Part shown: positions 14,229-54,704 of the stretch, piece by piece
How the letters are laid out: the number at the start of each line of letters is the position of its first letter
Position numbering within the stretch: position 1 is the stretch's first letter
Assembly (NCBI RefSeq): GCF_021028975.2
Contig: NC_059438.1
Span: forward strand, 186,001 to 250,000
DNA length: 64,000 bases
Direction: 5' to 3'
Origin: Sphaerodactylus townsendi
Lineage: Eukaryota
Made by a program: the position numbers and the translations under genes
The notes under the pieces: generated by a model
The model's input: only the letters and a program-made list of their open reading frames with translations
The model's database searches: none
What the model was told of the DNA's origin: nothing

Positions 14229-14255
14229 TCACATGTTTGTATTCTTTTTACTCCT
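14229..14255 (-). CDS. TERB1: Putative TERB1 terminal coding exon (RSKKNTNM*)
   Basis: Strong polypyrimidine acceptor (cctttctcctctctctcttttacag), phase 0 after CAG|gtactg at 16109; ATTAAA on the minus strand at 14191-14186. Confidence 0.55.
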   Translation of the reverse strand, partial: RSKKNTNM

Positions 14256-17200
14256 CTGTAAAAGAGAGAGAGGAGAAAGGCAATGTCAAGAAAGCTTCAG
14301 CAGATGAAAACACAGAACTACCATAATGTTGTGACTCATGATCTCAGGTACTCTGCAAGTTTGTCATTCAAAGCAGTCACAGCTGAATGGGGGGTGGGGG
14401 GTGGGGAAGGTCTCATATCTGGAGACCAGAAGGTGGTCTTAGGGGACTGTTGCTCTGTCTTGTGAGAGAGCAGGATGCCAGAGGGCTCAACTGTATCCCT
14501 GGTGTTTTTTAATATCTACATTATACCTCTGAGAGAATTTGCTCAGGAATATAAGATTTGGTGTCATTACGCTGATGAAACTAGCATCCTTTTTCATCAA
14601 ATCAGGTGAAGTGGGAGCATCCTTGAATGCATTCCTGAAGGCACTAATGGCCTAGATGAAGGGAAATAAACTCAATCCAGATAAGACACAGTTGACAGTT
14701 GTGAGTGGCCGCTTCCGCACAGCCACGCTGGGGGTTGGGTTGGTGTACATGACGCCGACCCAACCCCCCCGGGACCGTTCACACGAACGGTCCCGGTAAC
14801 GACAGGGCAGACGCCGCCATGCTGCACCATCGCCCAATTGACGTATCTTCCCTGCGACTGTCTGGCGCGGCGCCGAGGCCAGGGGACACGCCCCCCTGCC
14901 CTGCGCGACTGCTCCGGAGTCACCAGAGACGCGCCGGAAGGTCGCAGGGAAGGTAAGTCAATAGGGAAAGGGGGGGAGGGTTGGCGCCTTCCAGCTGCTG
15001 CCGTTCGCACAGCAGCTGCTGGAAGCCACCATTTCCCAAAAACCTTGCTCAGGGAACGAGGTGGGAAAATGGCGGTTTCGCGCCGCTGGGGAGGAGCAAG
15101 GGCGGCGCGGCTGCAAAGCAGCTGCGCCCCCCATGCGAACAGCTCCCTAGGGACGGCGTTTTTGCTGTCCCTAGGGCGCTGTAATTGGCCCGTGCGGAAC
15201 TGGCCTCACAACGCAAGCAAGGCTACACTAGGATGACCCTGTAAGAGGATCAGTTCTGGGTAAGCTTGTGCTCTCCCCCTCTCCAAAAATCAGCTTGGCT
15301 ATACTCCTGGATCCCCAGGTGACTGAGTATCATCTTGGGATGATTTGTCAGTTGAACTCATTTCTGGAAGATAAACAGACTCAGTCAGTGTTGTCTGGGC
15401 TTTCATTACTTTGGTGCAATACTCTTTACCTCAGACTAACTTTCCCAAAGGCCCCAAAATGCCAGCCAATGCAGAATGGAAGTCCCTGCCTGGGAAAATT
15501 TGTTTCAGCCCCTCCCTGTTCTTTTTTTAAAGGCCAGTAAAAGCAGTTGTGTTGCAGCATGTCTTTAGGAACTAAGGAGACTTATTCTTCTGCACTTTTA
15601 TTACTTTTTAAAATAGTTGGTTTTTAACTTCAGTAAATATTTTATGAACCCTTTATCTTAAAGAGGTGTACCTGTTGTTGTTTTTAAATAAAGAGATCAG
15701 TTTTTAAATTTCTGTACATTCATACCATATTAAAGTTTCCTATGCGAGCCAGTATGGTGTAGCAGTTAAGAGCAGGGGGACTGGAGAACTAAGTGTGATT
15801 CCTCACTCCTCTACATGAGTAGGGATTCTTATCTGGTGAGCTGAGTTTGTTTCCCTGTTCCTACACAGGAAGCCTGCTGGATGACCCTGGGCTAGTCACA
15901 GTTCTCTCAGAACTCTCTCAGCCTACTTTCCAAAGTGCCTGTTGTGGGGAAAGGAAGGGAAAGGAGTTCGTAAGCCGCTTTAAGATCCCTTTACAGGAGA
16001 GAAAGGTGGAACATAAATCCAAACTCTTTTTTTCTTCTATTCCTACCACATGCGAACATGGACTATTACACAGAAGACTGTCAGAAAGTTAACTTACAGT
16101 AGCAGTACCTGTAACTTGCTGTATTTCTTAGCAAGATCAACGTTTGTCCGTCCCTCCTGAAATGGGTAGGCCCACAGAATTGAATTCCAGTGATGCCCCT
16201 TCTTTTTGACACCATCTAAAAGATAGTTTATTTCTTCTGATGTAAAATCTTTCCTAATTCTTCGTTTGCTTTTTTTAAAAGCTGTGGCAAGCACATCCAC
16301 TGAACGTATCTCACTACCCTGCATATTAAATCAAAACAAGCCATGTGTTTTGTGTGCAATCTTCACACACATAAGGTATAGTCAAGAGTGTAACTAGGAT
16401 TGGGCAAGCCAAAGGCCGTACCCCAGGCACAGCCTGAGGGGGTGCCACGTAGCCCAGAGTCCCCCCCACAAGCTCTACCCCCATTCTCAAACTGCAACCT
16501 TCCCCAGAACTACACATGGAGTTCAGGGGCAGTGCCCCAGTTCAAGGCTGGGTACCAGATCTAGCTTTAAATTGCAGGTTCCGCCTCCCAAGCCTGTTAT
16601 TTAAAGCTGGACCCAGCCAGGCCGAGCCCAGTCTTGAATTGCAGGCTCTGCCCTGTCTGGGCCCATCTTTATACTGTTGGCTCTACCTCCAAAGCACTGA
16701 CTCCAAAGTCACATGGAGTTTGAGGGGAGGGTGTGCAGTTGAACACTTGCCCAGCCTTGAAGTGCAACCCTACTGTCAAACTCCATGTGAAGCTGGGGAG
16801 AGGTGCAGAGCTCAACACTTATCCCGGGTGCCATCTTTAGAAGATACACCCCTGGGTGCAGTGGCTAGAATATTAGACCAGGAATTCAGAGATCCATGTT
16901 TAGATTCCCAGTCTTCCATGGAAGTGTCTTTAGGCCATTCACTCCCTCTCAGCCTAACCTACCACACAGGGGTTTTGTTGGAAAGATAAAATAGAGACAG
17001 GGAGAACCATGTGGCTTTAGGATCCTATTGCAGAGAAAAGTAGGATATTTATAAGGTGCTGCATTCAATCTTTGTGAAGGGTTAGTTGGTATTATAGAAG
17101 CTTTCAGAATAACAAAAAAGACTGAATCATCCAGCTATCTGCACGGCTGAGTGAGGATATGAAACGCCACATCATTGGAGCACTTAAAATTGACAATTCT

Positions 17201-20200
17201 TGTAAACCCACTTTTTAAGTAGTAATTTCACAAGCAGGTCAGCTGAAGTAAACAGAGAAGGTATCATCTTATACCAGTTGCGAATTACTACTGCTGAATG
17301 TGTCCAGTGATTATGACGATTTAACAATATAAAAATGTTATTAGTATTTGTACTAAAATATTAGAATGTAAAATTAAACATACCTCATCATCAAATGAAT
17401 AGGTATGTTTTTCACCCAGACTTGCATTTTCAGGATTGTATTTTTGCTTGCTTGCTTGTTTCTCCATGAATGTATCATGTTTTGCTTGAAGATCTGCTAT
17501 TTTGATCAATATATTATTTGTTACCTAATGAAAACTAATGGCAGAACTATCTATTTTGAAAAAAATATGAGGCCAGAATGGTTGGATTGGTTAGCTGGAG
17601 GGAAATCTTCATCTTTCCTCCACCTACTTTCACCTATAAATATACCCACAGCCATTTCCTAAACTGTTTTCACTCTCCAAGGCTCCAAGACCAGAAGAAT
17701 CCAGCTAAAGAAAAGGTGACCTGGATAGCATTTGCAGGTAGTGAAAGTAATTGGTTTTTTCCTGTAGATGCAAAGCTTTCACCAATATCTTATTAATGCA
17801 AAAAAACCAAAAACCATCAGGCCCTAGGAAGCAAGCCCCCAACTCTACTAAACTGAACAAAGTTGATGATTTATTTTAGAATTATATATATTTAGAATTA
17901 GTATTTTGTGAATTCTTATGCATGGTATTTTGTGCAGAATTGAACAGCTGAAAATCTATTACCTGGACATTGCTTTTAGCCCTTTAATTGGGGAAAGATG
18001 CTTGCAAGGCAGGGTCTGTAAAGGCTCTAATATTCAGACAAAATTATGCACTTTCAAGGCCCACTGAAGTATTGAAAACACTTAAAAATAGCTTAGCTGC
18101 CAATATTCTTATGCATGTTATCATAATTACCGTTATAGCCTGTAGAACAATCCTTGTTAGAGATAATAGATCTTTTTAGATTCCTTTTATATTTCATTTC
18201 AGTTTGTAGAATAACTTTGTGCTGGGTACACAGATGTTGACAAGACTGTAAAATCTTGCAAAAATTGCGACTGTTTAACAAGTGTTCTGTTGTTATACAA
18301 CCTGAAAAAATAGCATATTGTAAAATATCAAGTAAATATAACAATGGCATTCAACAATAAAAAAAATACCTTCTCCTGTTTCCACTGTTTACCACATTCT
18401 TTTCTTTTCCCAAGGCAAGGTAACTATGTATATAATCGTGTCTATGCTTTATAATGGGACAAGAATTTCTGATTTCTTCTTTGCGGTATTATGGTAACAA
18501 ATGTCTCAAAAGAGTACAGCTACTGTGGTGTAGTGGACAGAGTGTTCAACTAGGATCTGAGAGACCCAGGGGCGTTCCTAGGCAAACTGGAGCCCTGGGC
18601 AAAACCTGAGTTTGATGCCCCCCCAATGGGCGGCCAACCTCTCCCATGGTAACCAAACAATGATTTTTTCCACCATGTTGTTTCAAAGTCACCATCACAT
18701 TATAGAACATGCCCCAACTCACAAATCTGAACACAGCAGAAATATTTTTTGAAAACATTTTCAAAATGCTTTCAAAATGTTTTATTACTGCTATGAAAAC
18801 ATTTTATGGTGTTGTATCCAGTCCCCCCAATTGGGGGAAACAGCATCACTTGTTTAAACTAGGGAGCCCAGATTCTCCTTTTAAATCCACCTTAAAGGGA
18901 GAATCTGGGGTCCCCAGTTTAAATAACATTGAAAGTGATGCTGTTTTGGGGTGGATTCTCCCCCACCCTGAAACAGCTTCACTTTCAATGTTTAAACCGG
19001 GGACCTCAGATTCTCCCTTTAAATCCATGCCGAAGGGGATGGATTTAATAATAATAATAATAATAACCTTTATTAGGGATTGGGAGAATAAAAGAAAGAA
19101 AGAAAACAAGCATTGGCAGGAAGGTGGATTTAAAAGGAGAATCTGGGGGAATTTAGGGGCTGCCTGCTGTCAGGGGTGCAATTATTAAGATAGCAGCACC
19201 AAAATTTCAGAGTCTCTTCGTGAGACCCTACTGATGATACCACCCAAGTTTGGTGAAGTTTGGTTCAGGGGGTCCAAAGTTATGGACCCTCAAAGGTGTA
19301 GCCCCCATCTCCTATTAGCTCCCTTTGGAAACAATGGGGGATGGGGGCACTCCCTTTGGGAATTCATAACGTGGGACTCCCTAAACCAAACCTCACCAAA
19401 CCTGGGTGATATCATCAGGAGAGTCTTCCAAAGAATCCCTGAAATTTTGGTGCTGCTAGCCTAAAAACTGTGCCCCCTGCAGGCCAAAAATGGAAAAGAC
19501 ACTGAAAATACAAAAAAATCCCACAAACGAACCTACGCCCCCCCACAAGGCTGCGCCCTGGGCAACTGCCCACTTTGCCCAATGGGAGGAACGCCTCTGG
19601 GGAGACCTAGGTTCAAATTCCTACTCTGCCATGGAAGCTCACGGGGTAACCTTAGGCCAGTCGCACACTCTCAGCTTAACCTACCCCACAGAGTTGTTGT
19701 GAGGATAAAATGGAAGAGGGAACACTGATGTAAATTGTGTTGAGTCCCCGTTAAGGAGAAAGGTAGAATATAAAGGAAGTAAATACATGAAAACAAGAGC
19801 AAAAATGTCCCAGTACCTGAGCATCTTAATTCCGATATTTTAGGATCCATAGAAGTAGTTGGAATATGGTTTGTCGCTGAATTTGTTATGTTCGAACCCA
19901 ATTTAAATGGCTCTGAAAGAAGAGGTTATTTTAATAACATAAAATACATGAAATAAGTATTCAGCTTTGCTTCATATCTTTTATATACTGCAAATTTACT
20001 TTACTACATATAAATACCATAATTATATATAAAGACAATTAAAAAACTAGTTGTGTGCATTATGTTCTAAAATAAGTTTAAGCAGAAAGCATTTTTTTAG
20101 TTACAGGGAAATAGAATGCCGATCTTCTTGCCCACCCTTGTGCTGTACCAATTCCTTTAGAAGCAGTTTATGGGGGTTACAAAGGAGTGGAGAAGAAAAA

Positions 20201-23200
20201 GAAAAGGTAGAAAGGCCTTGTTGCACATACAGACAATTTAATTTTGGCCACGAAAGCAAGCATAAGATGTAATACATGCAAGCTACTTGTTCTACATTCT
20301 GAAATAATTTTATTTCTAATAACAATCAAAGTAGTAAGAACGATATTTAGGTTCTCTGTACCTGTATTTGGTATTTGCTGTGTCACATTTTTAACAACAA
20401 GATCTGGTTGCGTGAACAAACATTCACTGAAACTAACATAAAAAGCACATAGTTGAATCCTGTTCTTTAATACATCACAAAATCCATCAGATCCCTTACT
20501 GCATAGTGGGGAAAAGCACTAGCTGTTATGTCTGCTATTTTTATACATTTTAAAATAAATAAATGTGTAAATTATGCACTCTGATCTTTAAACAAATCTT
20601 TAAACAAACCCATCGGGGAATTATTAGACCAGGGTTCTCTGATGCCTGTAAACTGGTGTTTAAAGACACAGACTTTACTTGCCCACTGTAGGAATCAAAA
20701 AAGTACCAGCAGCAATTGTGTGAGCTGTATGCATTATAAAGCAGTCTAACAAAACATGAGATTTTATGTCCCTCACTCATTTACATCTACAGCTTTGAAA
20801 ACATTTGCCATTCTTCCTAGAAATTGCCAAGCTAGTTAACTAAATACAATTTAGGTATGCACCCAGCAATTTAAAACCCTCCACAGATTTCTATAAAAGA
20901 TGATAATTCTGACACTTGAGGTGCAGCAGTTAAGGAAGTTGTATGCTTCTGGATTAGAATATAGTCCTGAACGAATATGAGAATTATCATTCATTTTTTA
21001 CGCACTGCCTTTGTCAAAACCATTATTGAACATGATATTTTGATATAACAGCATTCATGCCAAGTTTTATTTTTGCTTTCAGAGAGATGGGGGAAGCAGG
21101 GCTAGGTAGGCACTAGGGCTCAGGCAGAGCATTCAACAAAAAGAAGGTCCTGCATGCTTTGTTCTGTGGCCGAGGAATATACTATCTATTATGATCTTTA
21201 TGTGGAACAGAATATAGTTAATAATACTGTATTAACATTTCATGTGATAATCTGAGCTACATTTTACAATTTAAAAGTAACAATGTAGCCTTGTATTTAA
21301 AATTGAAGGTACAGTACCTTAACTGAATATCAGATTTATCAGATTGAAAAACTGTGGTTTTATTTGCAATAGAGACTTCTTTTATGCTGGCCGTTTCCTT
21401 TTTACCAATTGAATGAAGATTATGGTGGTCATTTTGAATGAGTGTGGTGTTGACTGGATTCCTTTTGATAGCCTTTAACTGTTCATTCTTGGATGATTCA
21501 TTTACACGTTTAGTAGCAGTCAGTTCACCCAATACCGAATTTAGCACTGGTTGGTTCTTTTTTGTACATTTTGTGTCTCTACTAGAGCTTTGACCACTAG
21601 TGATTATTCTAAGGTGCTTCGATGTAGTCTGTGTAACATCTTCAGGAGAAATGTCATTATAACCATCAGTAAATATCTGTCTCCTCACTTTTTCCTACAT
21701 TTAAAAAAGAAATCAGTTTGAGGATATACAGCATGCACACAAATAAAACATACTTTCCCCCAAAGGATTAGAAAGGCTAGGCCAAGATAAACAGGCGACT
21801 AAAGGACTAACAATTCACTCAGACAGCACTTTCATACAACCCTGTCTTTTTCCTCAGATTTTGACAGAGGCCCTTTCCCCACTTACCTTAAACCCCGCGC
21901 TACTCTCCTAAAGTAGCGCGGGGTCCAGCTGCACTCCCCACTTCAAGGGCAGCAAGAACGCAGCAGCCCTGACGCTGCCTCTCTCGCGCCCCCTCAGCGC
22001 GCGGCATCCCAGGCGCTCTTCTTAAGGGCGCCTTTTGATGACCCCGCGGAGAGTGCGGGGTCGTGGGGACGCCCGGGCGCACGCCTGGGATGCCGCACGC
22101 TGAGAGCAGCTTGCGGCATAGGGGAGATGGAAGAGAGTGGGGAAAGGCCCAGAATTCCCTAGTTACTACACTTTAAAAAGCCCAACCTCTTGATGTTCAT
22201 TTTCAAGCTGTTGAATGCGATGTAGAATCTGTTTTGCTTTCACCCTGTAGTCTTCAATAGTCTCTTCTCTGTGCTGCAGGTCTGCCTTCAAATGTCCTGC
22301 ATCCTCCCTGCTTGAGGAATTCTCACTTAGTTTCACTGACAATTTCTCAGCTTTTTGGAAAAGAATAAAAATTCATTATTTGGATCAATAAAAACAGAGA
22401 AATATATATTTAGTACTATAAAGGCTCAGGGCCATTTCATGGCAATTTTGGCCTTGTTTCTTTGCAGTATCAAGAGAAGATACTTTAGAAAAGTGGTTCA
22501 TGTGTGTTCTCTCTTCTGTTTCAGTGCCAGGAAAGCTGCAAGCAAAGTTGGCCATCAACAATTAGATCTTTTCCACATGGAAAACTCTCCCCAGTTCGAT
22601 ACAGTTGGGAAACAGGGCCCCCCACCCCCATCCCCACTGCTTCCACATAGCATCATGGTACATTCCCCAGCCTTTTCTCACTCTTCCAAACTAGCTTTAT
22701 TATGAAATTTTGGAAAATATTGCTTCAAGGCTAGATTGCTGCCATGTGGATGGGAAATTTCAGATTTTCCCATTTCCACCCACAGGACAGCCATTTTCCT
22801 TGCAGAGGACTCTGAGACACAGAGGACTCTGAGGCAGAACCTGAGGACACAGTGCAGCAAGAGTTGGCTGCTCCTGAGGAAGACCAGGCAGTAGAGCCAA
22901 CACCCAGCGTTTCCCTGCCTGATGACATTCAGATCCTCTTAGGGAACCCAGTGATGAGCCAGCTGTGCATAGGAGGCAGAAGCAGAGGCTGCTACTGCAG
23001 AAGCAAAGGAGGAGTGCTCGTTTGGCAGTAAGATATGGGAGATTAGAAGTCTCTGCATCTGATGAGGATTAACTTCTTGCAGAATCCCAGCCCCTTGAAC
23101 AAGGCTCTCTATTATATAAGTGTTGCTGTGAGCTTGCTTCTGCCTGGGGGCAACAAGCATGTTACCTATTGCCACCATGTGCCTGGTTCTTCGTTGATTC

Positions 23201-26200
23201 CCAGCCTGCTTCTCAGTTCTCCCGTATCATGACCCTTGGACTGTGATTTGACAATGCCTTGCCTGCTGCCTGCCTTGACCTATTGGACTGTGACCTGACT
23301 ACTCCTTGCCTGCCACCTGCCCTGACTCATTGGACTATGATCTGACGATGCTTGTGCTTGCCGCCCATTTGGCCCTGCGGGGTCAGACTTAGCCATGCCC
23401 CTGCCTGCTGGCAGCACATCTCATTTTTTACAAAAGTAGAAGAGGATAAGTACAGTGTAATCTGCGAGTAATAAATTTGTTAATTGGTGTATTTTCAGTA
23501 AATGGAGAAGGGGAAATACCTAGGCCCTGGGTATTCCACTGCCCCAAGCACAGTGGTATTGGTTCAGGTCTGGAGATGATAATGCCATGCCTGTTCCTTC
23601 CTCTCATGCTGCCATCCAGGTGCAAGACAAGCCCCTTCAAAGTCGCTGGAGCTCAATTTGAACTTCAGCAGCAAAGAATCTCACTGGATGGGAGAAGGCA
23701 AGGCCAAGCCTCAGACAGAGAAAGAACCAACCATCTTCCAATCTATAAAGCCTAGTCAATTGAAAGCAGTTCTTACTCATCACAGGTAGACAGGCAAGAA
23801 AAGTATACAAGTCTGCCCTAAAAATATCTTTTAAAACAGAAATGAAAGAAACAGCAGTCTTACTGATACGTTTGCAGTTCTGAAGCACAAAGGTTGCAGC
23901 CTTGTTTAGTTCTTCGTCCTGTGATTCAGTTAGAGCCTGAATCATGAGTGGAAGGCCGTTGTTCTGAACCAGAACATACTGATTCTCCTCTAAAAAAAAC
24001 AACACCGTTACAGCCAGTAAAATATCTACTCTGTTCAATCAATAGCATGCTATTGTATGAGCTCATTTACTGAGAAAATTGTTCAATGCATCAAAATATT
24101 GACTTTTTATTAGCAAGTGTATGTCAAGGAAATATTATTTATCAGAAGCCAAATCTGATTCTCAAAAGCCTCAAATTGCCTTTTTTGAGCCTCATATTGT
24201 GTAATGTTGTTATGATTGTTGCAACAGCAACTAATTTTAGATCACTTACTACAACAATTTGTAAGATACAGATCTTTTAAAATTTACAGAATATGCTGTT
24301 ATGGATCATGGCAAACCAGAAATAAAATTGAATTAACTGAATGTTACAATTGGAAGGGCAAAATGATGTTTTTCCTTGGTAGGAAACTCCCTTAGATAAA
24401 ACATTCATAAAATAAATATGAATCCTACCGCAACCATCTGTACAGTGTCCAAGGGTAAGTATAATGCTGAATTTTTCTCTTGAATTGATCATGCTGTAAG
24501 AAAGCAATGTCAGTAGATTCGGCACTATGTTATATCTTGCCAAGGCGGCTCCAATTGCATCTATGGGTACAAAATAATTTAGAGAGAAAAATCCATTATG
24601 CATGGAACACAGTGAGACCACCTTAGAAGCTTTATCTTAATATTTGCAGTGATAAGAGTGGGTGCAGACGGGAAGACCCAGCCTCAGCTCAGGGGCAGCA
24701 GATATGGAGGGCAGTAATGGGGGGCAGATGTGGATGGCGCACTTTGGGTACTTGCCCCAGGTGCCATTTTCAGCTGGTACATCACTGGGTATTTAATGAT
24801 ATTGGGCTCTGTTCACTCACAATTATCAGCAATACAGGCATCCAGGGTCTTTGTCACCGCTACTGCTAGTTTTGTGCTTGACAAATTTCCTGATGAATTG
24901 TATATCAGTTTGGCAAGAAGTTCATCCAGCACAGCTAATCCACCAATGGAAGCAAAAAACTGTTGTAATCTTGCTTGAAGAAGAAAAAATAAATATGACA
25001 GTTACTAAACATGCTTTACTCAGAGTTCCCGAAAAGTCACTAATGTCCAGGTATCACCTCAGTCAAATGCTTTTTTTGTGTGCAAAATTCTTAGGAGAAT
25101 TACTGCTATCATTCTCTTAACATTGTATTTTTCTTAAAAATAAAAACTAGTCAACAACCAAAAATAAAAGCACCTTCCCTCACAAATAATCACAATACTA
25201 GCAAGTTTATAAAGCAAAACCTCAACATGCTTTCAAGAGCCCCTTCTGCACACGCAAAATAATGCGTTTTCAAACCACTTTCACAATTGTTTGAAAGTGG
25301 ATTTTGCCATTCCGCACAGCTTCAAAGAGCACTGAAAGCAGTTTGAAAGTGTATTATTCTGCATGTGCGGAATGAGCCAAGGTGTCTTAAGAATATAAGA
25401 AGAGTCCTGCTGGATCAGACCTGTGACTTATCTAGCCCAGCACCTTGTTTCATGCAGCGGCCAACTAGTTTCTCTAAAGGGACAAGCAAAGGGCATAGGT
25501 CTTCCCCTGATGTTAGCACTGCTAGTGAAATGTTTTTGCTTGTTACCATAGTATAATTTTTGTAGAAGCATCATAAATAAAGCCAGAAGAGGGATGATGT
25601 GCCAGCTCACTTGGGTAGTTGCGCTAATTCAAACTGAGCACTAATTCGGTTCTGACCACCAAGTTCAGTACTGGATAGCTAAATTAGAGGATCTTTGGTG
25701 AGCAACTGCCAATCAGTCTAAACAACAGTAAGTTAAATGGATCAGTGTTCCAGGTTGGTGCAAGAGAGCAATACATGTTCATACATTCTCTGGCACTGAG
25801 AACACTTCCCTTCCTCTCCTGATTGTAGTACTCAATTCCATTATGACTTCGAAAATCACAAAGGTAGGGTACCACTTTTCTGTGCTCCGGTTCCAGGAGA
25901 TGAAGAACACCTGAGACAGCAAAAGTTATCCTATCTCCAACTAAAGGACTTGCGCTCTTCACTATTACTCAGTGAAACTTGGTTCCATAAAATATAATGC
26001 GATCATACAGTATTAGATACTTACAATTATTGGCAACGGTGAGCCCAATGAATGAACAAATTGGGCGAACGATCTCAGGTTTTATACAACGTTGCAGGCA
26101 GTCTTTTGCATATGGAAAAACCAAACTGCAGCTTTTTTGATTGTCCTCTGTAGGTGATGAAGCAATATGACTTAAAATTTAAATTGAAAACAGCAGTTTC

Positions 26201-29030
26201 CTTTTTATTTTATGTAATTACACAAACAATGAAAGCAACAGTGATTACCATTCTGGGGGTTATTGACACATGCACAGAGAGCACTGCAAACTGAAGTCCA
26301 CAGCTGATAGCACTGGTTAATATTATGATCTGACACGTTCACCTCAGTCACTGAAAGAGTTGTTCTATTAAGAAAGAAGACAAACTGTGAAAATGGCATG
26401 TTAAAACATCATTGTTCATACTTAACTGCAATAGCTTAGCTTGCTTGCTTACCTGAATAATTCTAGTAAAATGTCAAGGCAACCACATTCTCTCACATAC
26501 GTTTGCCCACTCTCTGTGAAAGAACGAAATATTGGTGTGTAATAAAATATTTCAATTATTAGGTAGCAAATAAACTCTGCAGTTTTTGGAACATTTCACA
26601 CATTCTGTATGATACTGAATGTAAATTCTAAGTGGAGTAGCAGCTAAATGTACAGCATCTTCAGTGTATGTCTAAAAGGCGTAGAACATGAAACAGACCA
26701 TGTTTTCTAGACTTAATCAGTGACACAAAGCCTAAAGATACAAAACCAACATGGTATAAACTATCAATTGTTTAATCCCTTGTGGTTTCTAGTTCTGATT
26801 CTTTCGCTTGGTGAATATTTGACGCTACATTTCATATCTCCAAAATTCAATGGAGCTGGAATTATGCAAATTATAGTACCAGAGTCCAACTGACCTAAGA
26901 CTGTTTAAGGTTGCAATCCTAAATACAGAGATTAGAAAATAAATCCCACTGTACTGTAAGTCTTTTCTAAGTAGCAACCATTGTGATTTAAATTGTGCAT
27001 ACGCACAAGTGTAAGGAAAGACTTACTGTTATTTGACACAAGTACTAACAAGACATAAACAGACACTCTTTTCAAATTCACACTGGAATTCCTCTGCGTT
27101 AGAAATGTACGGAGGTCTTCAAATAATCCAGAAGTACACAGAATCTCCTGACAAAACACTGAAACAACACAAATATTCCTTTGAACACTATACAATGAAT
27201 TTTCTTACATTAATACAACAGAGCCTTTTAACTGCTGATTTTTAAAAAGAAGTCTAAAGTAGAGACTTGGTACGAACAGTAAAAAGGAGATACAAAGTAA
27301 ATCATAAGTTAAATTCCCAGACCTCTCTTTATACACACAATAGGTTGTTATGAAGCTGAAAAAAAATCATATATCTCTGAATGAAGTCTTCAGAATAATG
27401 TGTATATGTTTTTATTTGAGGTATAAAAGGTTTCAAAACCCCCCAACAAACTTAGAAAGTGGTTCAAGAACGCCAAAAATCTAAAGGTAACCTATAGGAC
27501 AGGTAGAGGTACAGCATACCCCTTTTATGTATTTTGGGTCAAACTTAAAATATTGTGGAGTTGCTATCACTGTACATTCCTGGACAATTATTCTACACAA
27601 ATTGATGTTCTGCACACTACTGATAATGAATCAACTATCTTTCACCAAGATTGCCCCAATTACAGATAATTCTCAGGTAATAAGAGCTTTAATTGAACCA
27701 AGATTCTTGAATCAGATATTTTGTAAATTATTAAATACATTAAACATGACATATCTTTTTCAGGCGGATTCTGCGTGGGCCAAAAACAGCGGTGTGAAAA
27801 CGGTGTAAACTCTTTCATGCTGTTTTAAACCATTTTACACCATTTTCACATCAGTTTTTGGCCCATGCGGAATCCACCTCAGAAAGGCGCAAAGAAGCAA
27901 AATAAAAAAAATTAAGGTACATATACCCAGAAGTACATTCAACTGAATTCTTTAGTAAATGTCCTTAGGACTGTAGCCACATCAACTTAAAGATATTACG
28001 ATACATATGGGAATAAGGTTATATCTTACCACTGGTCTCAGCTAAACCTCCTAAAGTAAATAAGGCAGCTTCTTTTACTATGCTGTACACACTCGACTTT
28101 ACCAGGTTATTTACAAACATCAGACCACCTATTTCACGAAAATAATCACTAGCATCATCTGTTGAAAAAAACAGAAACAATAAACGATACTCTGCATAAA
28201 GAAATAAATCACTTCCACCTGGGAACCAATCAAGAAGCAACTTCTAAAATTGTAAAGCAAAATTTTATCCTACTGTTTTGGTGGCAAACTGAATAGACAG
28301 TAACCAAGGCTTCCTTTTGAGAAATAGGCTGGTCCATCTGATACTTAAGACATTCAAGGAGTAAATTCAGGTCAGTTTTCATCTCTGTAAGGATAAAGCA
28401 AGTAGATTTCAGAATTATAATACAACATTTTATTTTTTTTATTAGGGCAGCAGAGTGGTTAGGGTGATGAATCAGATCTGGGGGATATTCAAATTGAAAT
28501 CGCCACTCTGCATGAATCTTGCTGTCTGACCTTGGGCCAGTCACTTTTTCTCAGAAGAACATAAGAGCCCTGCTGGTTCAGACCAGTGGTCCATCAGCAT
28601 CTCATCTCACACAGTGGCCAACCAGTTTCTGTGGAGAATTAACAGCAGGGCACAGAGGTCATGGCCATCCACAGATATTGCTTAATCTACCTCAAAGGGT
28701 TGTTGTTGGGAAGATAAAATGGAGAGAATTATCTACATTCTAAGTACCCTGGAAGAAGGTGAAATAAAAATGTACAATAAATATCTTTAAATAGCTAGTT
28801 AATGAATACCCAGTTGAGAACTCCACCCCTTTGAGAATACAGGGCCTTGGATTCCCCCCCACCCTTTCCATTGTCAAAAGGTATCTCCACCAGCAGAGCT
28901 GACCTTTCTTGCCTCTCCTTTCCTTACTGAAGCCCAAAATCACTCCTGAAATTTTGCTCCTGGGGCGGGGGACCCCACCCCTCATGAACAAGCCTTGGGG
29001 AAACAAGAGGTTTCAGCTGCAAAGCTCCAA

Positions 29031-48825: not shown

Positions 48826-51800
48826 ATGACCAGTCATAAGTGCTGGGGATACGGGCAGAAGGACGGTAGGTTGTCTGCACTCTTTCCACCTCTGTTTCTT
48901 CCCTTTCTCGTCTATTCTGCTTAATATATTTAGATACAAACTGCTTGCTACTGAAGTGTGACAGGCAGGTAACTGGTTAACTGATAAGCAAGTCTTGAAT
49001 TATTGCTTGGAACTGGCACAAATTTCAGTGCCTAATGAATGCTCCCCAAAGCACGGCCCAGCAACAACCATAGATGCTTTTTCCATTTCCTTTGAGCACA
49101 AGAAGCAATACATTTTCTTGGTGACCTGGATGACCTTTGCCCTTTCAAGAGTCCTTTCCAAATAATAAAACCATGCACTTTTCACTTAATGCACTCCCAC
49201 AAATGCTGAAGGGGACAGAGTTTTTGTAGGACTTGAGCCAAGAGGGAAGAGCCGTGCTCCAGAACCGAACCAGAAGGGCTGCGGAAGCGTACAGGTAAAA
49301 CAAATGCCATCGAAAGGGACTCCAAATAATTGAAGCACATATGTGAGAATGGGATGGAGAGCCCTGCTATGTTCACCAGTTATTTTTATATGAGCATTCC
49401 TGCAGCTGAGCAGAGCAAAGAAAGAATGCACAAAAGCAGGAGAAAATTATTAAAACATTTCTAAAATTGTCAGAATGCTTCAGATGTGTTACTTTTCACT
49501 GGTGACGCAACAAGCACTGTAGAGGCACATCACACTTTGTGGCAGCAAGCTACACAGCTCTTAGTTCCAATGACTGACGGGAAGAATGGAAGGGGGATAA
49601 TATCAGTGACATAACATTGAACCCTGGGAAAATGTGTACGGGAAGGAGCATCTCTCAGCAGGGCAGCGCCTAATGCTGCTTACATAGAATCTCTGTCTCT
49701 CTGTCTCTCTGTCTCTGCCTCTCTCTCTCAGAAAGTCTATATATTTCCTGAGACTCCCATAGAGCTTCTGCCAGTTACAATATGGGCTACCATTTTAATG
49801 CAATGTAAGGGGGGAAATATGCACCTGAAAGTAAAAAGTCTGGCTAGTTTCTAAGTATCATCTTGTATGTTTTGTAGCTGATCAAAATTAGAACTCAGAA
49901 TTGGTGCCATGTTGTGTATCTTGTTCCACAGGACCTGGAGCTTCTGATGTTGCCAGAGTAGGGGGGAATACCCACTACCATAATTTCCATACTACTGTGA
50001 TGTTGGCAGATGTTTTATAGTACAGAGGTTCACTGTTCCCAAAATTAGTTCTTTGGTAGCCTGGAGGGATCACTGATTATTCTAGACAAGCTCATTGGTG
50101 ACTTTGACCAAAGGAAATATTTCCTTATGCAACAAGTGATTAAAACGTGGAATTTGTTGCCAGAGGATATAGTGATGGTCACAAGCATAGATAGTTTTAA
50201 AAGGGTGTTAGACAAATCCATGCAAGGCAGGTCCTTCAGTGTCTACTAGCCATGGGGACTAAAGGGAGCCTTTACATTGAAAGGCAGTCAGCCTCTGAAT
50301 CCCAGTACCAGGAGGCAAGGCCTCAGCCTCAGTGTTCTTTTGTTGACCCTCCAGACTGGTCGGCTACTGCGTGAGACAGGCTTCTAGACTAGATGGAGCA
50401 CTGATCTGATCCAGCAGGGCTCTTCTTATGTTCTTATGATTGTCCCCCTCACAGTAAGGCAACAGTCAAACAACTTACAAGAACAAAAAGGGACTGTCTA
50501 TGGTCTTGAAGTAACAGTGGCTTTCATTGTTTTTCAGGACCCGCTCAGTGGCACACGGTCTACCCCATTGCCCAAGGAAACCGTCAATCCCCAATTGACA
50601 TAGATTCAAAGCAAGCCATTTTCGACCCCTGTTTGAAGCCTTTCCGGGTTTCGTATGAATTGTGTGCATCTCTTGAGCTCTCCAACAATGGACACTCGGT
50701 CACGGTGGACTTTAAGGATGTTGATGACAAGGCAGGTAAGCATTGCTGGTTACTGTCACACTCCCGTAAAGGACGGGAATGGCAAAGGCCTGTTTGAGCC
50801 TGGCTGAGGTCAGACTCAAATGGGCCCTTGCTGCCCCTGAGCTCCACTTGGGGATTGGGGGGTGGGGCAATCTGGCTGGTGAGTCTGGCCAGCTCTGCTC
50901 CCGATCTCCATCTGGAGATTGAGGATGGGGCTAGCCCTGCTCACTGGCGGTCTACTGCTTCCCACCCCACACTCCCTGGCTGGAGAATTTGGGGCCAGGG
51001 AGCAGCTGCGGGGGGCACAGCACCTGGGGTAAGCCCCAGGCAGCCTTTTATTAAGCTACGCCCCTGGGTGGAGCCTGTGGAGGGTGGGGAGGAGCAGGGC
51101 CTCGCTGGGGTATAATGCCACAGAGTCCACCCTCCAAAGCAGCCATTTTTTTCAGCGGAACTCATTTTTGTTGTCTGGAGATCAGTTCTAATTCGGGGAG
51201 ATCTTCAGGCCCCACCTGGAGGTTGGCAGCCCTACCCCAAGGCCAATGAGAAACCAGTTCTCTTCTTCCTTTACTGGACGGTCAGAGCAGCTGAGCTGCA
51301 CATCTCTTCAGACCCTCCCTATCCCAGTGTCTTACAACCAGCAGCCCCAAGGCTTAGATCTACACACTTTGGCTCTTGCCCTTCAGTTCACACCAAAGGC
51401 TGGTGCCTCAGGATCAGATCAAGCTTTAAAACGTTTTCAAAATTGTCCATACAATGACATTATATTTATTTTAATACCTCCCCTTTCTCCCAAAGCAGCT
51501 TGTGTGACTCCGCCTTGATGAGCTTGTATGACTCTCCGTTCTCCATTTCATCCTCACAACAACCTTGTGAGGCAAATTAGGCTGAAAGGAATAAGCACCC
51601 CCCAGGTCACCCAGCAAACTTCCATGTCAGAGCAGGGATTTGAACCTGGACCTCCCAGAGCTTAGTCTGACACGAAGTCTAACAGTAGTGGTACAGAATA
51701 TGAATGAATTGTGTTGCCTGCTTGTTTAATGTGTACAAGATAATGCGTAGAGAGCCAGCATGGTGTAGTGGTTAAGAGCAAGTGCACCTGGAGAACCAGG

Positions 51801-54704
51801 TTTGATTCCCCGCTCTGCCACTTGAGCTGTGGAGGCTTATCTGGTGAACCAGATTAGCCTGTGCACTGCAGCACATGCTATCTGGGTGACCTTGGGCTAG
51901 TCACAGTTCTTCAGAGCTCTCTCAGCCCCACCCACTTCACAGGGTGTTTGTTGTGGGGTGGGGGAGGGAAAGGAGATTGTAAGACCCTTTGAGTCTCCTT
52001 CAGAAGAGAAAGGGGGGTATAAATCCAAACTCTTCTTCTTCTACAAAATATTGCTCCATCTCTTCCACCAACTTACCCTCCCTATACAGTTATCCCTGTA
52101 CAGTTGAAGCAACACTAGAATTAGAAAGAGGCAGACTTCCGAGTGAGTAGGAGGCACAAGAGAGAAGAACTTGGAAAGCTTTGCCTGTACATCTATCCCA
52201 TTCATTGAGGGAGAAGGGATGTTTACCTTACGTTGGTTCATGCCCAAATTCTGGTATTATGGTGCCAAAGGTTTCCCCTGGATAGAGTGTGATGCAAAAA
52301 AAAAAAAGGCCTTCAATGCTATGGTTACAGTCTCCCGTGACAGATCAAGAAACACTGGTGAGGCCATTCCTGATATCACTACAGCATTATCAGGTGCTGT
52401 ATTAAGTTGCAGCCACTCAGTCACTTAAGACGAACCTAACTTGCAAAGACCTCGGAGTAGGAACAGTTCAGTATATGTGTAGCATCTAATGGGATTTCAA
52501 GGACATTGAGGCAAAGAGAATGAATCGCTTCTCCATAAAGTTGAACAGAAGTGTTGCAGGACCGAGCTAGCTCAAAGTTGTTTGTTTTTTTAAATTTAAA
52601 TTAATTATTTGTTTGTTTGTTTTGGCCAGTCTCAATATGGTAAGGGTAAGGATGTCCCCCTATGAATTAAAAGTGCGTGCATTAGAACCACAACATCAGG
52701 ATTCTGCGGCACATTGCCCACACAGCAAACCTGCCGTGCCAGAAACTAAGGGATACCCCAAGTTCGTGTCCTGCTTCCTGCTTTACAGATGCCCTTTGAG
52801 TTGCCTTTGACATGTACCAACTCAGTCTGTATGAGAGAGCTGGCTCTGCGTCCAGATGGAAGCTTTTGTGTCAGATATGCTGCAGCAGTGTCCTGAACAT
52901 CCACAGTCTTTACAGGGACTGCATTCTTCCAGTAAAATGTTGTTTTATTTATGGAAATAGGGGTCAGCTACATGTTATGACATACCAGACTCAGGGATGA
53001 TGTGAGGAAAATATACCATGTCATTAGGCCCTGTCATTCATGGGGATTTGAACCCAGATATTCTGCACATCCTTAAAAAAAATGAAAATCACTACACCAT
53101 AGTAATCCTTTGCTTTACTTCCTGCTCACAGTGGTAAGCGGAGGGCCACTGGAAGATCCTTACAGACTAAAACAGTTCCATTTTCACTGGGGGAAAAACC
53201 GTGGTTGCGGATCAGAGCACACCATTGATGGCAAGCCTTTTCCTTGTGAGGTGAGTCACAACCTGTCTGCTGTGGTTGCAAAGGAAACCATAGCCTGCGG
53301 AAGTGAAGCAATCTTTCTTGGAAAATATCATTTGTAGTGTAAGAGAAGGCTTATGTTTCTCTAGAGTTGCAGAAATGTGATGCAGAGCACAGATTTGTTT
53401 GTATGTATCAGCACCCTCCAGATGGTTGATTGCTGTGCAACAGTAAAATCACAAAAATAGGCCCTGTCTGAATTGCTTACTCTGGCCGTTTCCGCATGGG
53501 CATTTAATGGCGGCCTGGAGACGGCAAAAACGCCGTCTCCAGGCCGCCATTCACACAGGGGGCGCAGCTGCATCGCAGCCACGCCGCGAAGCCGGCGTTT
53601 CCCCAGAGTGCTCGGAAGCGCTCTTGTTGGGGAAATGCCCCCTCAAAGCCGCTGCCGAGCGAACAGCAGCGGCTTCGAGACGCCTCCCCCACCCGGCACT
53701 TACCTTGTCCCCGGGCCTCTGGCGCGTCGCCGAGGCCTGGGGACACGCCCCCCTGCCCTGGCCCGGGGACATGCCGGGTCGGCTGGGTGCCGGCGCTGCA
53801 TGGCGCCGGCTGCCCGGCTCTTTCCAGGACCGTCCATGCGGACGGTCCCAGCGTCGTCAGGTCGGCGTCGGAAACGCCAACCCGGCCTTTTCCACATTCG
53901 TGCGGAAACGGCCTATGATGGAAAGGTGTAAAAGACCAAATTCAGGTATTGGCTGTGACATGGACATTGATGCTCCCCGTGATAGTGTGGATATGTTCTG
54001 ACTGAAGCAGCATTCGATAGAGAGCTCTCTATTGATATCGCTTCATAGGAAGTGGTGTCATACTGTATGCTGTTCCAAAATGGATCCAAGATTTTTGTTC
54101 TAAAGCCCTGGCGAGTTCCGGCATGACAGATTCATGAACCTTGATCTGAAACAAGAGTTTTCTTTTGTGTTTACAGTCACTGTTGATTGATTCAATAAAG
54201 CAATGGTTATTTGCAAGTTTCCTGAGCTTCGTCGACTTTCCAGAAATTCTGGCAGCTTTTCTGTTCTGAGCAAAGCTAAGCATTTGTTGTTCTCAAACAT
54301 AATCAGCCTTGACCTTGTCAGTTAACATTGACAATAACGATGCATAACTCCCTTCACCAGCTCCACTTAGTTCACTGGAACGCCAGGAAATATGGAACCT
54401 TTGGAGAGGCAGCGGAGGCTCCAGATGGCCTAGCCGTGGTTGGCATCTTCTTAGAGGTAAGAGCCACAGAAATAATTGCTTCTGCTCAGAGAGATGTTAC
54501 CTTTTCCACAGTTTAAGATCCAAAGTGCATGTTTAAGAAGCTGGATTTGTGTTGGAGAAAGATGCTTAATGAAACTAAGCATATAAATAGCACTTTTAAG
54601 TGCTCAAACTGTTTCATGTTCATCATCACTGTAATCATGTGATATGCTATGGATAGGACCGTCTTGACTTGGATCTGTCTCAGCTACGCTGGTCCCATCA
54701 GATC

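Follow-up and report, generated by a model that had tools for sequence, protein, structure and literature searches.

The gecko Sphaerodactylus townsendi carries an intact TERB1 gene that lacks the TRF1-docking IxLxP motif, as does every complete squamate record among the best 120 of 758 TERB1 matches, and the peptide groove of squamate TRF1 is substituted. The peptide contact between TERB1 and TRF1 is the textbook link from shelterin to the meiotic nuclear-envelope tether. Comparing the sequences on both sides of this interface, we place at about 0.6 the probability of the combined reading, in which a single ancient deletion likely removed the motif and squamates have probably given up the peptide contact between TERB1 and TRF1.

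The gene lies on the minus strand of the window, meaning the whole 64,000-nucleotide stretch of DNA that was analysed. The RefSeq TERB1 protein of S. townsendi (P0001) maps to it from 28385 to 14232 in 17 blocks, three N-terminal residues being unmapped, and all of the blocks are open, in keeping with the preliminary description that the rest of TERB1 is intact. Exon 18299-18132 was 100% identical to P0001, and the translation of exon 15 matched the TERB2-binding fragment of human TERB1 (PDB 6j07_B, E 1.1e-12). The upstream coding exons (19815..28385), all in open frames, encode the ARM repeats, coiled coil and linker; they are followed by exon 15 with the TERB2-binding (T2B) helices (18131..18301, phase-1 end, final G before a GTAATT donor), exon 16 (17384..17496, ADLQAKHD and onward, the orthologue of the turtle TLQTDQD exon), the Myb-like exon (16109..16318, recognition helix AKKYSK) and, from the P0001 mapping, the final coding exon (14232..14255). 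The N-terminal ARM repeats matched PF00514 and were identical to human TERB1 at 239/362 residues, the T2B helices at 26/49 and the Myb-like domain at 36/51. A genome search found a single copy, and two ordinary neighbours were recognised in the window by sequence match: NAE1 (~46000-34000, minus strand) and a carbonic anhydrase gene (50510-53334, plus strand), an adjacency that agrees with the human gene order. With ARM repeats, T2B helices and a Myb-like domain devoid of the K-D-R DNA contacts, all in one copy, the gene is an intact single-copy TERB1 orthologue. High-copy repeats, recognised by contig depth, occupy window positions 16000-16100, 16500-17000 and 18525-19000.

A direct DNA scan from 18130 to 16319 in the three gene-strand frames found no [IFY]xLxP, bearing out the earlier observation that no ILLTP-like motif lies between the first 15 exons and the Myb exon. 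Human ILLTP comes straight after ICNKK, and ICNKK aligns with the end of exon 18301-18131, placing the position of the human motif just behind this exon.

Homologues were compared as gene models, the best 120 of 758 matches, the gecko genome being the one whose DNA was read. Squamates contributed 27 proteins from 25 species, of which 25 (23 species) hold both T2B and Myb; a Tiliqua model that skips T2B and a truncated Rhineura model were set aside. None of the 25 complete records had an IxLxP between T2B and Myb, and the only squamate matches, Zootoca ILLNP and Hemicordylus CILTP, lay upstream of T2B. Among the same best 120 of 758, the motif was carried by 91/93 records of non-squamate tetrapods (turtles 30/31, crocodilians 5/5, birds 47/48, one caecilian and mammals 8/8), the two misses being a truncated model and an LVLTP variant, so that alignment of squamate, bird and turtle TERB1 set uniformly motif-less squamates against tetrapods that are mostly carriers. 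Outside squamates, other tetrapods and many fishes have 1-3 copies per protein. The motif was likewise missing (0/29) from a set of isoform records in which both anchors are present, drawn from Podarcis, Lacerta, Pogona, Hemicordylus, colubrids and Anolis; five of these 29 repeat proteins of the 120-record set. Some fish and frog models (Amia, Hymenochirus) lack the motif too, and LTP motifs in ray, chimaera, sturgeon, caecilians and frogs indicate that it is ancestral. The squamate TERB1 linker was variable and held no shared new motif as judged by eye; an S/T-P site was missing from it in 13/15 squamates checked and from the P0001 linker, and the gecko motif region had no CDK-type T-P-x-K/R site. 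The lack is real and not species-specific, and it very probably reflects a loss across the squamate lineage. No tuatara is among the matches listed, so this loss can be dated no more closely than to some time since squamates diverged from turtles and archosaurs.

On the other side of the interface, the gecko TERF1 gene is intact (contig C9, adjoining KCNB2), with a TRFH domain, nine open blocks and a K-D-R-W-R Myb, which rules out loss of TERF1 as the cause of the motif loss. TRF1 has been found at telomeres in Anolis (PMC8653790), and R102, E106, Q127 and R131 have been named as its peptide-binding residues (PMC12635197; human numbering throughout). Gecko TRF1 reads R, L, Q, G and F at 102, 106, 127, 131 and 142, and thus departs from the canonical groove. 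Y124, which we take to be a groove residue as well, occurs together with R131 in human, in 14/14 turtles and in 17/17 birds, as against 0/24 squamate records with a residue there; the squamate replacements are C or S at 124 and Y, C, G or H at 131. At position 106 the human E is Q in turtles and birds and L in 22/24 squamates, and position 104 is L in 21/22 squamate records, while R102 and Q127 are retained, as is F142 in 19/24. Bird TRF1 also varies at R102, and the motif is kept in both turtles and birds with their Q106. The column counts and tests that follow omit 8/62 TRF1 records: P0269 (alternative first exon), P0282 (unnamed fragment) and six lacking the segment (P0299, P0302, P0305, P0316, P0317 and P0325).

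TRFH columns fixed in turtles and birds number 92; full replacement in squamates affects 9 of them, with reciprocal counts of 0/53 for turtles and 5/58 for birds. Of the residues named in PMC12635197 that are fixed in turtles and birds, 2/3 were replaced squamate-wide against 7/89 other columns (Fisher test, p 0.024), and the addition of Y124 and F142 to the groove set gave p 0.006, both being post hoc tests of one event on one branch in which records are not independent samples. A TIN2 FxLxP is reported in mammals only (PMC8653790), so that in reptiles the groove likely serves mainly TERB1; this fits TERB1 as the constraint on the turtle and bird groove. A Pfam TRF search and a TINF2 search matched nowhere and are uninformative on the presence of either. 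Complex prediction for a gecko TRF1-TRFH dimer with TERB1 565-712 returned a score of 0.00, in a run made without alignments and with the fold of the partner uncertain, and is weighed on neither side.

L104, L106, K110 and C124 are nearly fixed across squamate TRF1 records, a pattern that resembles remodelling to suit a new ligand more than decay. It is this near-fixation that makes a co-evolved swap the main rival, one in which squamate TERB1 or TERB2 would dock in the TRF1 groove through a new, non-consensus peptide. Consistent with such an exchange, the groove surface is more hydrophobic (L104, L106, C124, Y/C/G131), F142, R102 and Q127 mostly persist, and the gecko genome retains FLLPP in TERB2. 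However, the variable TERB1 linker offers no common new peptide, and the FxLxP of TERB2, a putative docking site, is reported in all metazoans (PMC7227075). We consider the swap unlikely, although it is the alternative that fares best. A parallel may exist in TRF2, where the gecko protein has Thr at docking residue F162 (DWITD versus human DCSFD; one genome; sequence match at L033:9037-9297, G000:C14:25385037-25385297, minus strand). In the same single genome, a positional match to Apollo (E 0.2; L043:2254-2454, G000:C5, plus strand) has YDFSP in place of YLLTP. The two changes are possibly a second co-changed TRFH interface, which would count in favour of the swap. The wider proposal that squamates rewired the whole TRFH docking code, with TERB1 motifs lost, the TRF1 groove rebuilt and TRF2 and Apollo changed in step, is put forward tentatively and seems to us doubtful as a whole.

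The manner of the loss was approached through the exon structure behind T2B. Outgroup models skip two blocks, A and B, as units, each beginning xxLTP. An extension behind T2B is common among squamate models. The one in Hemicordylus scored highest against the distal half of block B, at 32.8, where none of 18,950 other squamate 21-mers exceeded 19.5. The gecko sequence read in frame past donor 18131 (GNYDNMHKNIGS; 18093..18130, minus strand, stop at 18095-18093) also matched this distal half and ranked 2 of 15,954 positions as a match to the extensions of other geckos. Within it, DNMHKNI (18122-18102, in frame) matched the start of that half at a level reached by 3/805 windows, with a 7-residue sub-profile picked after the alignment had been inspected. 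The counterpart of 18093..18130 is still coding in models of other geckos, Hemicordylus and snakes, whereas S. townsendi has a stop. Extended forms have G, S or C at the junction in 14/14 cases, with N always next; this fits x-GT-AAY, as expected from read-through of one donor. We infer that 18093..18130 is what survives of the distal half of ancestral exon B, the second motif exon.

These features suggest that the loss probably occurred by one old deletion removing both ILLTP copies. Such a deletion would have begun immediately past the donor of exon 15 and ended midway through the second motif exon (B), and would have taken both copies together with their CDK-type T-P-x-K sites; as the remaining junctions are all phase 1, the reading frame would have survived it. 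No copy of the motif region was found elsewhere in the gecko genome by a low-sensitivity search, and a moved copy was rejected at a best match of only E 1.7. Window 17791-17721 has a frame, KILVKALHLQEKTN, in which HLQEKTN at 17770 resembles turtle NLQEKYN; it was tried as a remnant of the YxLxP half and discarded for lack of significance, with counts of 336 and 676 among 805 windows. KILVKALHLQEKTN would carry the DNMHKNI remnant further, provided that the ~330 nt separating the two were inserted later.

The preliminary description had instead taken segment 18026-17963 (minus strand) for the TRF1-binding exon, frameshifted in this lineage, with PLQTL as the eroded ILLTP. Its account of the segment was accurate: 64 nt flanked by ttag and GTAATA, with a phase-2 end, reading EPLQTLPCKHLSPIKGLKAMS when joined to the phase-1 end of exon 15, and followed by no good phase-2 acceptor, since none listed (score > -3) opens into the next exon. 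The acceptor is fair and the donor good (8.0), although the same intron has another donor at 7.0, all on a rough matrix built from only 15-16 sites of TERB1 itself. Were this a decayed motif exon, the eroded motif would be KHLSPIK and not PLQTL, which lacks both anchors. KHLSP has the L and the P, with K replacing I/F/Y, and is the sole xxL[TS]P of the intron; LSPIK continues the frame of exon 15 when acceptor 18026 is used and has a chance expectation of 0.012 per intron, for a pattern picked afterwards. Within the intron both motif profiles also score highest at this segment, but these scores are not significant, that against the turtle, crocodilian and bird motif-exon profile being reached by 95/805 and 224/826 background windows in two tests and that against the second profile by 109/805. 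Furthermore, it sits downstream of the remnant of an exon that ought to come after the motif exon, and it is out of phase and included in no squamate model among the matches listed and the isoform records. Neither PLQTL nor KHLSP is an [F/Y/I]xLxP TRFH-binding motif in a coding exon. We hold a decayed exon here to be improbable: the evidence favours the old deletion upstream of the segment, which is itself probably intron, its homology to the motif exon being unsupported.

The compensating exon proposed alongside it (17788-17721, minus strand, spliced to acceptor 17524) has a weak donor and is absent from the RefSeq model. No extra exon is needed, because splicing from donor 18131 to the phase-1 acceptors 17496/17493, overlooked in the preliminary description, would preserve the frame, as the RefSeq model has it; the resulting junction x-[DN]-[LF]-[QK] is seen in most other squamate models. 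The exon 16 acceptor is a tandem NAGNAG (17496/17493), and at this junction the isoforms of Podarcis and Hemicordylus diverge by a single residue. At the A-run of the segment, where the frameshift might have been an assembly indel, contigs from three DNA runs (two samples) crossed with 0 gaps, ruling out such an error; the verdict rests on these gap-free spanning contigs, run X4 being without coverage of 17616-18423. In the sample of run X3 the last base of exon 15 (window 18131), beside the donor, is changed from G to A on the gene strand.

How the complex would reach telomeres can be considered from its other components. Gecko TERB2 and MAJIN exons are present, with two matches each. Telomere bouquets form in Paroedura picta and Pogona (PMC9597255), and TERB1 of both is motif-less (best 120 of 758 matches). 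In mammals, MAJIN-TERB2 binds DNA directly, the affinity of a wider TERB1 region for TRFH exceeds that of the lone peptide by at least 100-fold, and the TERB2 C-terminus also contacts TRFH (PMC6297230). TRF1 has additionally been reported to bind Speedy A (PMC5988695). TERB1-TERB2-MAJIN would then be recruited without the peptide, mainly through DNA binding by MAJIN-TERB2, helped by weaker TRFH contacts outside the motif in the TERB1 flanks and the TERB2 C-terminus. By analogy with mammals we give this particular replacement even odds, and favour it because MAJIN-TERB2 binds DNA, TRFH contacts exist outside the peptide, and the Myb and TRF2 routes are unlikely.

Those two routes were the ones suggested previously, and here the preliminary description held in part. 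A tether without the canonical TRF1 contact agrees with the missing motif, the intact TERF1, the uniformity of the squamates sampled and the matching groove changes; a takeover by TRF2 or by a DNA-binding TERB1 Myb did not stand. TERF2 is present with the equivalents of Q105/R109 kept, and the TERB1 Myb exon is well conserved. However, squamate TERB1 has no YxLxP (best 120 of 758 matches), gecko TRF2 lacks the stacking Phe, and the gecko Myb recognition helix is A-K-K-Y as in turtles and not K-D-R-W-R. The mammalian TERB1 Myb does not bind DNA, and restoring three residues did not regain binding (PMC8867601). This takeover is highly improbable. Weakest of all, and barely credible, is a motif exon missed by annotation or lost through mis-assembly: the comparison set does consist of gene models, but the three-frame DNA scan was empty, independent contigs agree with the assembly, TERB1 is single copy and 23 species agree (best 120 of 758 matches).

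The gecko genome also contains three extra TERF2-like copies: L030:883-1668 (G000:C1, ~168.919 Mb), an intronless open frame of 261 codons with an intact K-D-R-W-R Myb and no TRFH match; L031 (C1, ~13.196 Mb), also intronless, which carries a frameshift and aligns to TERF2 in six blast pieces; and L032 (C6, ~5.493 Mb), a fragment.

Set beside the human system, the gecko keeps the ARM repeats, T2B helices and Myb-like domain of TERB1 and the TERB2, MAJIN and TRF1 genes, but lacks IxLxP and a T648-type CDK site and has a TRF1 groove changed at 104, 106, 124 and 131. With turtles, crocodilians and birds it shares the flanking exons, and squamates appear to retain the far half of the second motif exon as a remnant; unlike squamates, which have none, these groups mostly have two ILLTP-type motifs, to which turtles and most birds add a YxLxP (best 120 of 758). 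Invertebrate TERB1 resembles that of squamates in having T2B and no IxLxP (da Cruz et al. 2020, PMC7227075); there, however, the absence of the motif is regarded as original and only one TRF exists, whereas squamates would have lost it secondarily, and the gecko keeps TRF1 and TRF2. In the mouse Terb1 TRF1-interface mutant (Long et al. 2017, via PMC6823321 and PMC6361898) the TERB1 peptide contact is similarly unusable, but that change is engineered and causes male sterility, mainly from failure of X-Y pairing (PMC6823321), while the squamate change is natural and bouquets still form.

The motif has been described as conserved 'mostly in Vertebrata' (PMC7227075); the main text of that paper does not mention reptiles or lizards, and its supplementary alignments may include a lizard whose gap went unremarked. 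A squamate loss was not reported in the literature searched, most subscription papers lying outside its scope, or in PMC13005343. Squamate TERB1 appears to be a real, lineage-wide variant of a known TRF1-docking system whose loss we did not find in print. A whole reptile order likely without the contact on both sides, with relatives that have two or three motif copies and with bouquets kept, amounts to a natural experiment. In breedable Paroedura, Pogona and Anolis it can be asked how TERB1-TERB2-MAJIN finds telomeres without the motif, whether a T648-type CDK site is needed for cap exchange and whether the contact is needed mainly for pairing short pseudoautosomal regions. If squamates did rewire the TRFH docking code as a whole, the meiotic tether of lizards and snakes would be recruited by a route independent of the TRF1 peptide and free of the CDK switch, and this route may show the ancestral way in which the complex finds telomeres.

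Finally, turtle, crocodilian and bird TERB1 (P0013-P0115) was seen to combine two tandem ILLTP-type motifs with a YxLxP of TRF2 consensus, mammals having one motif; one of the two could sit in each groove of a TRF1 dimer.
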